Positions 39,928 to 47,099 of a stretch of DNA of 64,000 nucleotides are shown piece by piece. The notes beneath the pieces are model-generated. The model saw only the letters and a program-made list of their open reading frames with translations. It was not told the DNA's origin and searched no databases. The stretch comes from Flavobacteriales bacterium (GTDB lineage: Bacteria; Bacteroidota; Bacteroidia; Flavobacteriales_F; PHOS-HE28), in assembly GCA_019912395.1 (NCBI GenBank), contig JAIOIH010000026.1:20812-84811 (forward strand), in the 5' to 3' direction. Both the position numbers and the translations under genes were made by a program. Position 1 is the stretch's first letter, and every line of letters starts with the position of its first letter.

Positions 39928-40322
39928 GGGGCCGACATGGTTTCGACAGCGGCTACGTAGTGCGTGTAAGCATGCAGAGCATTGAGGATGACGCTCTTTA
40001 AACTCGATCTTCAAGCCTTAACCGGCAACACTGAGTACGCACTTGCTGCCTAATAGCCCAAGGCTATGAAGCTTCACCCCGTGAACAACAGTAGCGGGGG
40101 CAAGTACCCCTCGGGGAGGCCCGCAACCCTCCTTCCCGGCCCAGGGGTATCATCATGGGAAGCTGGTCAGCGCGGTGGTCCGAAGCGCTGATGAGACAAC
40201 AGGACCTAAGTTGTCAGTAGGGTGTCCTTTCCCGGCTGGCTCTCGAAAACCAACGAAGGAAGAAGCATGTGGAAAGCTCGTGGTACGGTCGTTTGGACGA
40301 GGGTTCGAATCCCTCCGGCTCC
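39928..40322 (+). ncRNA. ssrA: tmRNA (ssrA)
   Basis: 5' end GGGGCCGACATGGTTTCGACAG. Tag reading frame GGC AAC ACT GAG TAC GCA CTT GCT GCC TAA TAG gives GNTEYALAA with double stop (about 40024-40056). 3' tRNA-like domain GGACGAGGGTTCGAATCCCTCCGGCTCCA. Acceptor pairing has a G3:U70 wobble, the Ala identity element. Confidence 0.9.
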
Positions 40323-40330
40323 ACTCGCCT

Positions 40331-42853: not shown

Positions 42854-44077
42854 TCACTTCATCCCCTTCTCCAACCCTTCCCGCAGCGCGGCCATGAAGG
42901 CTTCGCTGGTGAGGTACTGGTCCGGGCCCACTTTGCTGCCGTGGATGCACACTGCGAGGTCCTTGGTCATCTTGCCGGCTTCCACGGTCCGGATGCAGAC
43001 GGCCTCCAACCTGTGGGCGAAGTCGATGAGTGCTTGGTTGCCGTCCAGCTTGCCCCGGAAGGCGAGGCCGCGCGTCCAGGCGAAGATGCTGGCGATGGGG
43101 TTGGTGCTGGTGGGCTTGCCCTGTTCGTGCTGGCGGAAGTGACGGGTCACGGTGCCGTGGGCGGCCTCCGCTTCCATGGTCTTGCCGTCGGGGGTGATCA
43201 GCACGCTGGTCATCAGGCCGAGTGAGCCGAAACCCTGTGCCACGATGTCGCTCTGCACATCGCCATCGTAGTTCTTGCAGGCCCATATGAAGCCGCCGCT
43301 CCACTTCATCGCCGCCGCTACCATATCGTCGATCAAGCGGTGCTCGTAGGTGATCCCGGCCTTATCGAAATCGGCCTTGTAGTGCTTCTGGAAAATCTCC
43401 TCGAAGATGTCCTTGAAACGGCCGTCGTATTGCTTCAGGATGGTGTTCTTGGTGCTCAGGTAGAGCGGCCATTTTTTCTCCAGCGCCAGATTGAAGCAGC
43501 TATGGGCGAAGCCATCGATGCTTTCGTCCGTGTTGTACATGCTCATCGCCACGCCGTCCCCCTTGAACTGGTAAACTTCCCAAGTGGTGGGGTCGCCTTC
43601 CTCCGGCGTGAAGGTCATGGTGAGCTTGCCCTTGCCCTTGATCACCACGTCGGTGGCCTTGTACTGATCGCCGAAGGCGTGGCGACCGATCACGATGGGC
43701 TTGGTCCAACCCGGAACCAGGCGCGGGATGTTGCTGATGACGATGGGCTCGCGGAACACGGTGCCGCCGAGGATGTTGCGGATGGTGCCGTTGGGGCTCT
43801 TCCACATCTGCTTCAGGCCGAACTCCTTCACCCGTGCCTCGTCCGGCGTGATGGTGGCGCACTTGATGCCCACATGATGCTTCTGGATCGCATGGGCGGC
43901 ATCCACGGTCACTTGGTCGTCGGTGGCATCGCGGTGTTGGATGCCGAGGTCGAAGTAGTCCAATGGTACGTCCACGTATGGCAGGATCAGTTGGTCCTTG
44001 ATCCACTTCCAGATGATGCGGGTCATCTCATCGCCATCGATCTCCACCATGGGGTTCGCCACCTTGATCTTCTGCAT
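42854..44077 (-). CDS. icd: NADP-dependent isocitrate dehydrogenase (dimeric IDH1-type)
   Basis: 407 aa. [23 protein letters not shown]. Substrate site [23 protein letters not shown]. Confidence 0.92.
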
Positions 44078-44247: not shown

Positions 44248-46008
44248 CTATCCCAGATCCAGATCAAGGTCCTCCCGCAACTTCAACAAGGCCGGGTTCT
44301 TCTCCGCCATGATCATGAAGCGGTCCCTCGGGGTATAGCGTGGGCGCATGTTGGCGACTTCCCGCTTGATCACATCGAGTTCCAGGTCGGGGATCTCCAT
44401 CTCGCGGCGAAGATGTCCCAGCAACATGGGTTTCTCCTCGCGCATGTAATTCTCCTGCACGCTGTTCACGATGGTGAAGGAGATGCTGTGCGGGCCGATG
44501 ATCACGGGCTTGTTGGCGATCAGCGTGGCGTGCATGCTGCTCTTTCCCTGTTGCTTCAGGCCCTTGGCGTATTCGCCCCAGGTCTTCATCAGCAGGGCTT
44601 GATTGAGCTCGCGGCCGGGCCGATGGGCAGCTTTTCCCGTCGGTTGTTCGCCGGGGTGGTCCGCCAGGCTGGTGGATGCCGTTTCCGGGGAGGGGGCCAA
44701 ATGCTGCCGGATGGAAACCGCGCCGGCCATGCGCTTTTGGGGAGGCGCGGGACGGGATGGTCCGGGCGGGGGGTCGGCAGGCCGCTGATTCGGCGTGGGC
44801 TTGGCACTATTGGCAGCCGCAACTGGTGCTGAAGGGAGCGGGTCGGCGGTCACATCAGGACTTTTTTTTTCCACTTGCGGAACGGGCCCGTTGCCGTTAT
44901 GGCCAGCGATCGCATGCTTGCTGGTCTGGGCCAATTGGATCAATGCCAGTTCCACCAGCAGGCGCGGTTCCTTGCTGTTCTTGTACTGGGAATCGACCTG
45001 CCCAAGCCGGTCCAAACCTTGCACAAGGAGGTCACGCGGAACCGCTTCAGCCTGTGCGCCATAGCGTTCGCCCAGTTCCTCGCTCACTTCCAGGAGCGGA
45101 ATGGTGCGCAGGTCCTGGCTCACAAGCAGGTCGCGGAAGTGCCGTGCGAGGCCGGCGACGAAGAGATGGCCGTCGAAGCCTTGGTACAGGATATCGTTGA
45201 ACACCACCAAGGCACCAGCGGCATCCCCTTGGAGCAGGCTGTCCGTAATGTTGAAATAGTGCTCGTGGTCCAGCACGTTCAAATTCATCAGGACATCCGC
45301 ATAGGTCAGGTTGTCCCCGCCGAAACTGACGAGCTGGTCGAAGATGCTGAGCGCATCGCGCAATCCGCCATCGGCCTTTTGGGCGATGGTGTGCAGGGCT
45401 TGGGCCTCGGCTGTGATGCCCTCCTTCTTGGCGATCAAGGCCAAGTGCTTGGCGATGTCCGAAACGGTGATGCGCCGGAAATCGAACACTTGGCAACGCG
45501 AAAGAATGGTGGGGATGATCTTGTGCTTCTCGGTGGTCGCCAGGATGAAGATGGCGTAGGAGGGAGGTTCCTCAAGCGTCTTCAGGAAGGCATTGAAGGC
45601 CGCGGAGCTCAGCATGTGTACCTCGTCGATGATGTACACCTTCTTGGTCCCGATCTGCGGAGCGATCTGCACCTGCTGGATCAAGTTCCGGATATCCTCC
45701 ACACTGTTATTGCTGGCGGCGTCCAGCTCGAATATGTTGAGCGAATGGCCCTCATCGAAGCCCTTGCAGGAGAGGCATTCACCACAGGTGGAGAGGTCCT
45801 CGTTGAGCTTCTCGCAGTTGATGGTCTTGGCCAGAATGCGGGCACAGGTGGTCTTGCCCACGCCTCGTGGGCCGGTAAAGAGGAAGGCCTGCGCCACGTG
45901 GTTGTTCCGGACGGCGTTCTTCAGGGTACCGGTAACATGCTCTTGCCCCACGACCGAATCGAAGGTGTCGGGGCGGTATTTGCGGGCACTGACGACGTAA
46001 CGTTCCAT
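44248..46008 (-). CDS. dnaX: DNA polymerase III subunits tau/gamma
   Basis: Trimmed to MERYVVSARKYRPDTFDSVVGQEHV. Walker A GPRGVGKTT. Zinc module CEKLNEDLSTCGECLSC. Pro-rich linker after about residue 381. 586 aa. Confidence 0.9.
   Translation of the reverse strand: MERYVVSARKYRPDTFDSVVGQEHVTGTLKNAVRNNHVAQAFLFTGPRGVGKTTCARILAKTINCEKLNEDLSTCGECLSCKGFDEGHSLNIFELDAASNNSVEDIRNLIQQVQIAPQIGTKKVYIIDEVHMLSSAAFNAFLKTLEEPPSYAIFILATTEKHKIIPTILSRCQVFDFRRITVSDIAKHLALIAKKEGITAEAQALHTIAQKADGGLRDALSIFDQLVSFGGDNLTYADVLMNLNVLDHEHYFNITDSLLQGDAAGALVVFNDILYQGFDGHLFVAGLARHFRDLLVSQDLRTIPLLEVSEELGERYGAQAEAVPRDLLVQGLDRLGQVDSQYKNSKEPRLLVELALIQLAQTSKHAIAGHNGNGPVPQVEKKSPDVTADPLPSAPVAAANSAKPTPNQRPADPPPGPSRPAPPQKRMAGAVSIRQHLAPSPETASTSLADHPGEQPTGKAAHRPGRELNQALLMKTWGEYAKGLKQQGKSSMHATLIANKPVIIGPHSISFTIVNSVQENYMREEKPMLLGHLRREMEIPDLELDVIKREVANMRPRYTPRDRFMIMAEKNPALLKLREDLDLDLG
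44862..44870 (-). other. A9 homopolymer (mRNA sense) inside dnaX: a candidate programmed -1 frameshift / transcriptional-slippage site for a gamma-length product
   Basis: The coding strand reads G GAA AAA AAA AGT CCT GAT GTG A (..VEKKSPDV..). The -1 frame, or +1A slippage, gives AAG TCC TGA (K-S-stop). The +1 frame, or -1A, gives GTC CTG ATG TGA (V-L-M-stop). The site is at about codon 380 of 586. Confidence 0.5.
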
Positions 46009-46348: not shown

Positions 46349-46356
46349 TACATTTG
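46349..46356 (+). promoter_or_regulatory. Bacteroidota-type -7 promoter element (TAnnTTTG) upstream of rpsF
   Basis: TACATTTG about 25 nt upstream of the rpsF ATG. No Shine-Dalgarno sequence, as is typical of the phylum. Confidence 0.25.
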
Positions 46357-46380
46357 CACCCCAAATTTACCAAGAGGCAC

Positions 46381-46758
46381 ATGACCAACCGGTACGAGAC
46401 CGTCTTCATTCTTACTCCCGTTTTGTCCGAGGACCAGACAAAGGAGGCGGTTACCAAATTCAAAGACCTTCTCAAAGAGGGCAATGGCACGGTCCGCCAT
46501 GAAGAGAACTGGGGGATGCGCAAGCTCGCCTATCCCATCCAGAAGAAGTCCTCGGGCTTCTACCACCTGATCGAGTTCGAGAGCGACCCGTCGCTCATCG
46601 CCAAGCTCGAGACCGAATACCGCCGCGACGAACGGGTGATCCGTTTCCTCACTGTGGCCATGGACAAGCACCATATCGCGTTCGCCGAAAGCCGCCCCGC
46701 CCGGGGTGGTGAGGGCGGCACCGGTCGTGCTCCGCGTAAAAAGAAGGATAACGCCTGA
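46381..46758 (+). CDS. rpsF: 30S ribosomal protein S6
   Basis: Trimmed to [20 protein letters not shown]-terminal acidic/glycine-rich tail. Confidence 0.92.
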
Positions 46759-46769
46759 ACACAACGGAA

Positions 46770-47099
46770 ATGAGCGAAGAAACGACCACTTCCGCCGCAC
46801 CGGCATCCACACCGGCACCCGCGAAAACGGGTGGAGGCGCCAGCAATGAGATCCGCTACCTCACGCCGATCTCCATCGAGACCAAGAAGGACAAGTACTG
46901 CCGCTTCAAGAAGCTCGGTATCACCTACATCGATTACAAGGACGCGGACTTTCTGCTGCGCTTGGTGAACGAACAGGGCAAGATCCTGCCCCGTCGCCTC
47001 ACCGGCACCAGCCAGAAGTACCAGAAGCGCGTGGCCCAAGCCGTGAAACGCAGCCGCCACCTCGCCCTGATGCCGTACGTGGCCGATATGCTCAAGTAA
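46770..47099 (+). CDS. rpsR: 30S ribosomal protein S18
   Basis: ...[61 protein letters not shown]. Confidence 0.92.

Follow-up and report, generated by a model that had tools for sequence, protein, structure and literature searches.

A nine-adenine run in dnaX of a Flavobacteriales bacterium: a probable transcriptional slippage site for tau and gamma-like products, and its occurrence across Bacteroidota

On the minus strand of a 64,000-nucleotide stretch of contig JAIOIH010000026.1 from a Flavobacteriales bacterium (here called the window, meaning the whole analysed stretch; G+C content (GC) 59%) lies a dnaX gene, the gene of the DNA polymerase III subunit tau, and inside it a run of nine adenines in the sense strand (A9), which is the subject of this report. 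The open reading frame (ORF) of dnaX starts with the ATG at 46008–46006, begins MERYVVSARKYRP in minus-strand reading, and stops at 44248–44250. Its product matches NCBIfam NF011531 (DNA polymerase III subunit gamma/tau) with 728 bits (cut-off 685) and TIGR02397 (dnaX_nterm) with 420 bits (cut-off 250), the latter covering residues 4–359, and is 99% identical to MCB0758641.1 of Flavobacteriales metagenome-assembled genomes, annotated as ‘DNA polymerase III subunit gamma/tau’. The Pfam families DNA_pol3_delta2, DNAX_ATPase_lid and DNA_pol3_gamma3 were detected; domains I–III occupy residues 22–363, with domain III at residues 238–363. Another 223 residues follow domain III, the final ~130 of them conserved in the family, and this is the C-terminal extension expected of tau. 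The features of the locus are:

44248..46008, minus strand: dnaX coding sequence (tau, 586 aa plus stop), based on ORF and translation, the profile matches and the 99% identity to MCB0758641.1
44860..46008, minus strand: part common to tau and the predicted gamma-like product (codons 1–383), based on Pfam and TIGR02397; the AAA+ domains I–III end at residue 363
44862..44870, minus strand: putative A9 slippery run (T9 in the template strand), by direct reading; last two bases of codon 380 (GAA), codons 381–382 (AAA AAA) and first base of codon 383 (AGT)
44855..44859, minus strand: CCTGA, invariant in ten clade sequences; its TGA (44855–44857) is the stop after gain of one A or after a −1 ribosomal shift
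44850..44852, minus strand: TGA of the +1 frame, by direct reading and simulation; reached after loss of one A or gain of two
44644..44859, minus strand: tau-specific Pro/Ala-rich hypervariable linker (~residues 384–455), from the translation and a family alignment without conserved columns
44251..44643, minus strand: conserved tau-specific C-terminal domain (~residues 456–586), with invariant columns 472–583 in the family alignment and a precomputed Pfam assignment to DUF8439

The sense strand around the run reads CCG CAA GTG GAA AAA AAA AGT CCT GAT GTG ACC (motif GTGGAAAAAAAAAGTCCTGA). The run is located 17 codons past the end of domain III, and the tau ORF runs on for 207 codons from the run start. 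Behind the run, the −1 frame continues AAG TCC TGA and the +1 frame GTC CTG ATG TGA. In simulated transcripts, the templated form encoded 586 aa, one additional A resulted in 384 aa (...EKKKS), one missing A in 385 aa (...EKKVLM), two additional A's in 386 aa and two missing A's in 383 aa. An earlier reading of the locus, made without database searches (the sequence-only reading), had reported the A9 at codon ~380 with stops in both alternative frames, KKKS and VLM as the peptides preceding the two TGA codons, and a gamma-like truncated product of about 382–384 aa. Direct reading and simulation bear out every element of this, the product length being essentially right. The same reading had placed the site before a Pro-rich linker that precedes tau domains IV/V. 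Here, the linker holds, whereas domains IV/V had been presumed for a C-terminus which, though conserved, showed no E. coli tau domain IV/V family in the Pfam scan. By analogy, this C-terminal domain would bind the polymerase alpha subunit. A run of at least nine A's after domain III, an uninterrupted tau ORF and near stops in both alternative frames, as in the anatomy of a Thermus-type site, are all found in this dnaX.

Within the window, 27 A/T runs of five and two of six were counted, none of seven or eight and one of nine, so that the A9 in dnaX is the only run of at least seven. An A9 was present somewhere in the window in 11 of 100 dinucleotide-preserving shuffles (p about 0.11); its occurrence in the window alone is, therefore, not significant, and what makes it significant is where it lies, which codons it uses and how well it is conserved. 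The site uses AAA AAA AGT CCT despite the low usage of these codons in the 36 long ORFs of the window, where AAA represents 19% of the Lys codons (AAG 81%), CCT 10% of the Pro codons and AGT 11% of the Ser codons. Stops in both alternative frames as close as those at the A9 are found at 0.7% of the codon positions in the dnaX genes of the close clade described below. The 11% of shuffles could be taken in favor of pure chance or, as homopolymers are hot spots of replication slippage and sequencing errors and run lengths differ by one base between related species, of a hypermutable homopolymer at the DNA level (phase variation) or an assembly error. We consider this the least probable of all explanations weighed here. 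The same in-frame A9 is found in three assemblies of the organism (the window and the independent L161 and L162), and the essential dnaX is an unlikely target of on/off switching. An exact look-up of ten predicted +1A and −1A truncated products from five lineages found none among ~15 billion predicted proteins and hence no sign of length polymorphism within a lineage, which is weak evidence and says nothing about the RNA. The short members of ten protein clusters were also considered as truncations at the run and rejected, being contig-end or N-terminally truncated fragments.

For the close clade, DNA of ten related lineages (64–82% protein identity, GC 0.54–0.61) was retrieved individually, plus two further assemblies of the window organism. 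All these loci have A9, A10 or A11 starting from the second base of a GAA or CAA codon, and then CCTGA. In the alignment of the site with its flanks (10 members), the nine A's and CCTGA are the only invariant columns of 135. The Lys codons at the run are always AAA and the Pro codon is always CCT. Because of the stop contained in CCTGA, the tau frame is bound to have the rare CCT for Pro and then a codon for Asp or Glu; in other words, the ‘P-D/E’ conserved in the protein is explained by the out-of-frame TGA underneath, made of the T of CCT and the GA of GAN. Seven of the ten sequences retain the second stop, that of the +1 frame, in the form GAT GTG A or GAC CTG A.

At the protein level, [E/Q]KK[S/K/N]P[D/E] is present at residues 371–412 in all or, for P[D/E], nearly all of the 120 best homologs (64–99% identity, all from uncultured Flavobacteriales), and the rest of the linker around it is unalignable across them. 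This EKKSPD-like peptide might suggest that no recoding occurs and that the Lys-Lys(-Lys) patch is kept for a protein reason, as a hinge, interaction or protease-recognition site at the linker start, with the A-run and the stops as by-products. A cleavage-site motif is conceivable, since gamma of Caulobacter crescentus is made by proteolysis of DnaX through ClpXP (PMC5009743), which likewise is a shortened gamma-like DnaX from a tau-length gene. However, that process is post-translational and needs neither a slippery sequence nor out-of-frame stops, and nothing at the window site argues for proteolysis. A protein motif also does not account for the exclusive use of AAA where AAG makes up 81% of the Lys codons, or for a rare CCT always encoding Pro. 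Further, across the phylum the codon phase shifts and 21 peptides are encoded while the nucleotides stay A9–A12, and the two-ORF variants presented below are inexplicable in this way. An explanation by protein function is, thus, very improbable, and the sequence comparison indicates that selection at the A-run is acting on the nucleotides rather than on the protein.

One variant was observed within a single 90%-identity cluster (P0280 vs. P0074), in which most members have SLEKKKPD and one has SLKKKKPD. If the Lys codons of the latter are AAA, a G-to-A change made the run ~3 bases longer and left the frame unchanged; such a tract could grow by substitution as well as by indels.

To a wider extent, dnaX was surveyed in two scans of genome and metagenome contigs, which provided 160 more distant loci (35–52% overall identity) among the matches listed. 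Loci with an organism name are mostly Bacteroidota, and several are isolate genomes. For each locus, the frame was anchored by tblastn and the longest A-run was sought near the end of domain III; all counts refer to the 166 assessable loci among these matches. A run of A9–A12 is found at the homologous boundary of domain III and linker in 116 of the 166 loci, distributed as follows:

Longest A-run A9: 18 loci
A10: 82 loci
A11: 15 loci
A12: 1 locus
A8: 0 loci
A7: 3 loci
A6: 4 loci
Without A6 or longer: 43 loci

Run-bearing groups are Sphingobacteriales, Cytophagales, Chitinophagales, Flavobacteriales, Saprospiraceae and many Bacteroidales. The run is also present in 17 of the 26 listed loci with a GC of at least 0.53. 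Its start falls in each of the three codon phases (68/36/13), and the different tetrapeptides encoded number 21. Of 147 full-length representatives taken at 50% identity, 102 have KK or KKK at the boundary. Loci with A9 have a mean GC of 0.48, those with A10 of 0.41, those with A11 of 0.36 and the single A12 locus has 0.25, values to which no phylogenetic correction was applied. Conservation at this specific position in 116 of 166 loci, isolate genomes included, excludes chance, and a chance origin of the run was rejected on this ground, not on the window statistics.

The majority form, with 99 of the 116 run-bearing loci among the matches listed, is a single ORF like that of the window. In 100 of 100 single-ORF loci (these 99 and the window), the frame entered after addition of one A is closed at most 6 codons from the run end (median 1 codon), by TGA in 61 cases. 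Stops within 15 codons in both alternative frames were found in 95 of the 99 loci, the window being left out of this count. The check suggested by the sequence-only reading, i.e., whether related Bacteroidota keep the A-run together with out-of-frame stops, hence turned out strongly positive.

A two-ORF layout was found in 14 further relatives among the matches listed. In 13 of them, a stop in the 0 frame directly follows the run, and tau would be reached by addition of one A (L046, L058, L078, L080, L110, L120, L122, L130, L131, L135, L138, L147 and L151; L080 is an isolate genome). The remaining one, L137 (metagenome contig Ga0255758_10005490; run at codon 354), has the tau C-terminus in the −1A/+2A frame, opposite to the other 13. 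In Flavobacteriaceae, a difference of a single A (GGAG-A10-GTTGA vs. GGAG-A11-GCA...) toggles between single-ORF and two-ORF architecture.

Short forms of DnaX are known to arise by −1 ribosomal frameshifting in E. coli and by RNA-polymerase slippage in Thermus (PMC3711429; Atkins, 2016, PMC5009743; PMC1088944). In Thermus thermophilus, experiments demonstrated both slippage at dnaX and a product ratio of about 1:1 (Larsen et al., 2000, PNAS; Yurieva et al., 1997, JBC; both cited after PMC1088944 and PMC5009743). Its motif is GAGAAAAAAAAAGCCTGA (PMC3711429, Suppl. Fig. S3). The window site resembles it in having an A9 in the sense strand after the clamp-loader domains, a single tau ORF and close stops in both other frames, and neither site needs RNA-structure stimulators; the parallel to Thermus drawn in the sequence-only reading is, thus, well founded. 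Even the bases behind the run are similar, with A9 G CCTGA in Thermus and A9 GT CCTGA in the window. However, Thermus belongs to the Deinococcota and our organism to the Bacteroidota, and slippage at the window site is predicted. Given this distance between phyla, the site is either very old or convergent. In a broader view, the post-run bases are alike across phyla, as A9–10 is followed by G(N)CCTGA in Thermus, Chlorobium and Prosthecochloris (PMC3711429, Fig. S3) and in the window clade (44855–44861).

Within Bacteroidota, Antonov et al. (2013, NAR; PMC3711429, Suppl. Fig. S3) aligned the poly-A dnaX of Flavobacterium johnsoniae, F. psychrophilum, Cytophaga hutchinsonii and Capnocytophaga ochracea with that of Thermus, and listed several Chlorobi and Coraliomargarita in addition. 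They predicted transcriptional realignment, and solely for the two-ORF architecture, which they found in F. johnsoniae and C. hutchinsonii, both with complete genomes. Run lengths in that work are A9–A10 in Suppl. Fig. S3 and A7–A8 in two further Chlorobium genes mentioned in the text. These genes share with the window the phylum, an A-run at the homologous site and the predicted mechanism. They differ in that gamma is the default product and tau is made via slippage, whereas the window gene encodes tau in frame, and gamma would come from slippage. Two-ORF forms in both directions were their criterion for transcriptional realignment (PMC3711429); the two-ORF layout is that of the 14 relatives above and not of the window gene itself. 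Programs that search for frameshifts, GeneTack among them, cannot see the single-ORF form, and Baranov et al. (2005; PMC1088944) deliberately left it out, as truncating slippage sites were deemed hard to validate comparatively. Our literature search found no paper describing a single-ORF poly-A dnaX for Bacteroidota. The sequence-only reading had regarded the site as undocumented for the lineage; this has to be withdrawn for poly-A dnaX in the phylum, where it had been predicted, and stands for the single-ORF form.

Some features of E. coli dnaX have a counterpart in the window: the gene is the same, gamma would be without the tau C-terminus, the slippery sequence is of poly-A type and the −1 frame stops immediately (AAG TCC TGA). 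This raises the question of whether programmed −1 ribosomal frameshifting on A_AAA_AAA, or a slide on the Lys poly-A, produces the 384-aa gamma-like protein from unedited mRNA. An in-frame A_AAA_AAA is indeed present, the E. coli gene uses this route, and the −1-frame stop is the most strictly conserved feature of all (invariant CCTGA; at most 6 codons away in 100 of 100 single-ORF loci). Two Pontibacter loci (L035 and L041, codon 375) have an A7 only (TC AAA AAA AGC TAA) with a −1-frame stop two codons on, which is sufficient for a ribosome, and Hymenobacter L075 has an A10. The Pontibacter lineage may have switched to a purely ribosomal A_AAA_AAA shift or may be losing the signal.

However, the E. 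coli cassette combines A_AAA_AAG with a Shine-Dalgarno-like stimulator upstream and a stem-loop downstream, three elements that are neither present nor conserved here. The efficient heptamer A_AAA_AAG is absent in frame from the window dnaX, which has A_AAA_AAA followed by the codon AGT. No AGGAGG-like element was found in the upstream 30 nucleotides (GGCAACGGGCCCGTTCCGCAAGTGG), a region unconserved among clade members. The fold of the downstream 82 nucleotides was no more stable than that of shuffled sequences (z = +0.85), and the same was seen for 131 nucleotides around the site (z = +0.44). An RNAalifold consensus of ten clade members contained 0 pairs. Searching Rfam, the dnaX frameshift element was not found at E ≤ 10, the only match being a chance one to SCARNA23. 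As single-sequence folds, consensus fold and Rfam were all negative, an E. coli-type cassette was rejected, and of the likeness to E. coli dnaX proposed in the sequence-only reading the −1 stop persists, whereas the heptamer, the Shine-Dalgarno-like element, the stem-loop and the Rfam match do not. In general, Bacteroidota make little use of Shine-Dalgarno pairing. Ribosomal frameshifting further leaves some observations unexplained: seven A's would be enough, yet 116 loci among the matches listed keep 9–12 and none has A8; most of the high-GC clade also retains a +1-frame stop, which is not needed in E. coli dnaX; and the two-ORF locus L137 needs the opposite shift. We consider the ribosomal route rather unlikely as the explanation of the site, but clearly ahead of the protein-motif and chance explanations.

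Based on this comparison, the A9 is probably a programmed transcriptional slippage site of the Thermus type and the main route to tau and a gamma-like product. With considerably higher confidence, we regard it as a functional two-product signal, be it through the polymerase or the ribosome. The sequence-only reading had left both routes level; each is indeed possible, but the comparative evidence favors the polymerase. According to the favored mechanism, RNA polymerase copying the T9 would hold an RNA:DNA hybrid consisting entirely of A:T pairs, which can realign and would give rise to dnaX mRNAs carrying 9, 10, 11 or a larger number of A's, and to some with 8. Full-length tau of 586 aa (587 with an extra Lys) would be made from transcripts carrying 9 (or 12) A's. 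Those with 10 A's would stop at the TGA at 44855–44857, giving 384 aa that end with ...EKKKS, and those with 8 or 11 A's at the TGA at 44850–44852, giving 385 or 386 aa. These short products would keep the clamp-loader domains I–III and be without the linker and the C-terminal domain, forming a gamma-like subunit of ~42 kDa. A minor share might come from −1 ribosomal slippage on A_AAA_AAA, which would yield the identical 384-aa product. That the polymerase does slip at the A9, as well as any tau:gamma ratio and role of gamma, is what we infer from the sequence.

Several observations argue for polymerase slippage. First, the run always has at least nine A's, with none at A8, though a heptamer is enough for a ribosome, and it occurs in every codon phase. 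Second, the E. coli-type stimulators are absent. Third, most of the high-GC clade has stops closing both alternative frames, which matters only if transcripts with one and with two additional A's (or one missing) are made. Finally, two-ORF relatives exist in both directions, and shifts in both directions are possible only with transcript-length heterogeneity. Since tau is essential in E. coli, two-ORF species must, by analogy, achieve efficient frame changes at their run, and the same behavior is very probable for the homologous run of the window. Nine A's is also the length at which slippage becomes efficient and which many genomes avoid (Baranov, 2005; PMC1088944).

Some points weigh against polymerase slippage. 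The literature on dnaX slippage in Bacteroidota yielded predictions only and no experimental test in the phylum. The run always holds an in-frame A_AAA_AAA, and the best-conserved stop also serves a −1 ribosomal shift; much of the pattern is, thus, also expected from a translational mechanism. In the +1 frame, the second stop is not kept close by everywhere; in L171 it lies 84 codons from the run start. Near out-of-frame stops are expected anyway in AT-rich genomes. Lastly, ~30% of the sampled dnaX genes, mainly of gut Bacteroidales, do not have the run, which is accordingly either dispensable or replaced by something undetected. Run-less loci are mostly from gut Bacteroidales such as Phocaeicola, Prevotella and Bacteroidaceae (L020, L022, L025, L048, L050, L051, L065, L069, L071, L077 and L079), and many gut-metagenome loci in the range L087–L103 have no A-run either. 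In the 43 loci without A6 or longer, the region around the end of domain III had essentially no other in-frame heptamer of the type X_XXY_YYZ. Gut Bacteroidales without the run have either no gamma or another route to it, such as proteolysis.

The A9 site of the window is a good new example of a principle proven in Thermus and predicted for some Bacteroidetes; the mechanism is textbook and not surprising. As a modest extension, the survey adds that the single-ORF form is the majority in Bacteroidota, that run length falls with rising GC and that gut Bacteroidales lost the run. Going further, we lean slightly toward the view that slippage at A9–A12 is the ancestral and general route to tau and gamma in Bacteroidota, and probably in Bacteroidota/Chlorobi at large, with an overlooked single-ORF majority, architectures toggled by one-base indels, a run length tuned to GC, and a loss in gut Bacteroidales. 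If this is true, no other cellular gene that normally relies on RNA-polymerase slippage for its expression would be as widespread as dnaX, and a phylum with little Shine-Dalgarno pairing could not easily have adopted the E. coli solution. Concerning annotation, a single protein is annotated for the window gene and for about 100 of the 166 dnaX genes sampled, and a second subunit of an essential complex, of ~42 kDa, is probably missed. A third large lineage obtaining two products by a non-ribosomal route, with a default product that can be swapped, would be strong comparative evidence for selection of the short form. The finding bears on the open question of why bacteria keep gamma, for which Flavobacterium johnsoniae, Mucilaginibacter and Dyadobacter are genetically tractable organisms. 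Methodologically, an invariant A-run plus CCTGA in a hypervariable high-GC linker shows that comparative validation of truncating slippage sites is feasible, in contrast to the earlier assessment (Baranov, 2005; PMC1088944).

The surroundings of dnaX are kept across the clade. Upstream and divergent lie rpsF-rpsR(-rplI) (window 46354–47099, plus strand; L161–L171). Downstream lies the gene for an NADP isocitrate dehydrogenase (PF00180, 406–408 aa; window 42854–44077, minus strand), except in L171, where the gene downstream of dnaX has no Pfam match on record. A promoter and terminator scan of dnaX gave nothing relevant; the single terminator-like match is on the other strand and below shuffle expectation. 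Further away, a transfer-messenger RNA gene was identified at 39928–40326 on the plus strand (Rfam RF00023, 135.6 bits), for which ARAGORN gives the tag peptide GNTEYALAA; RF00023 is the sole Rfam family reaching the gathering threshold in the whole window.

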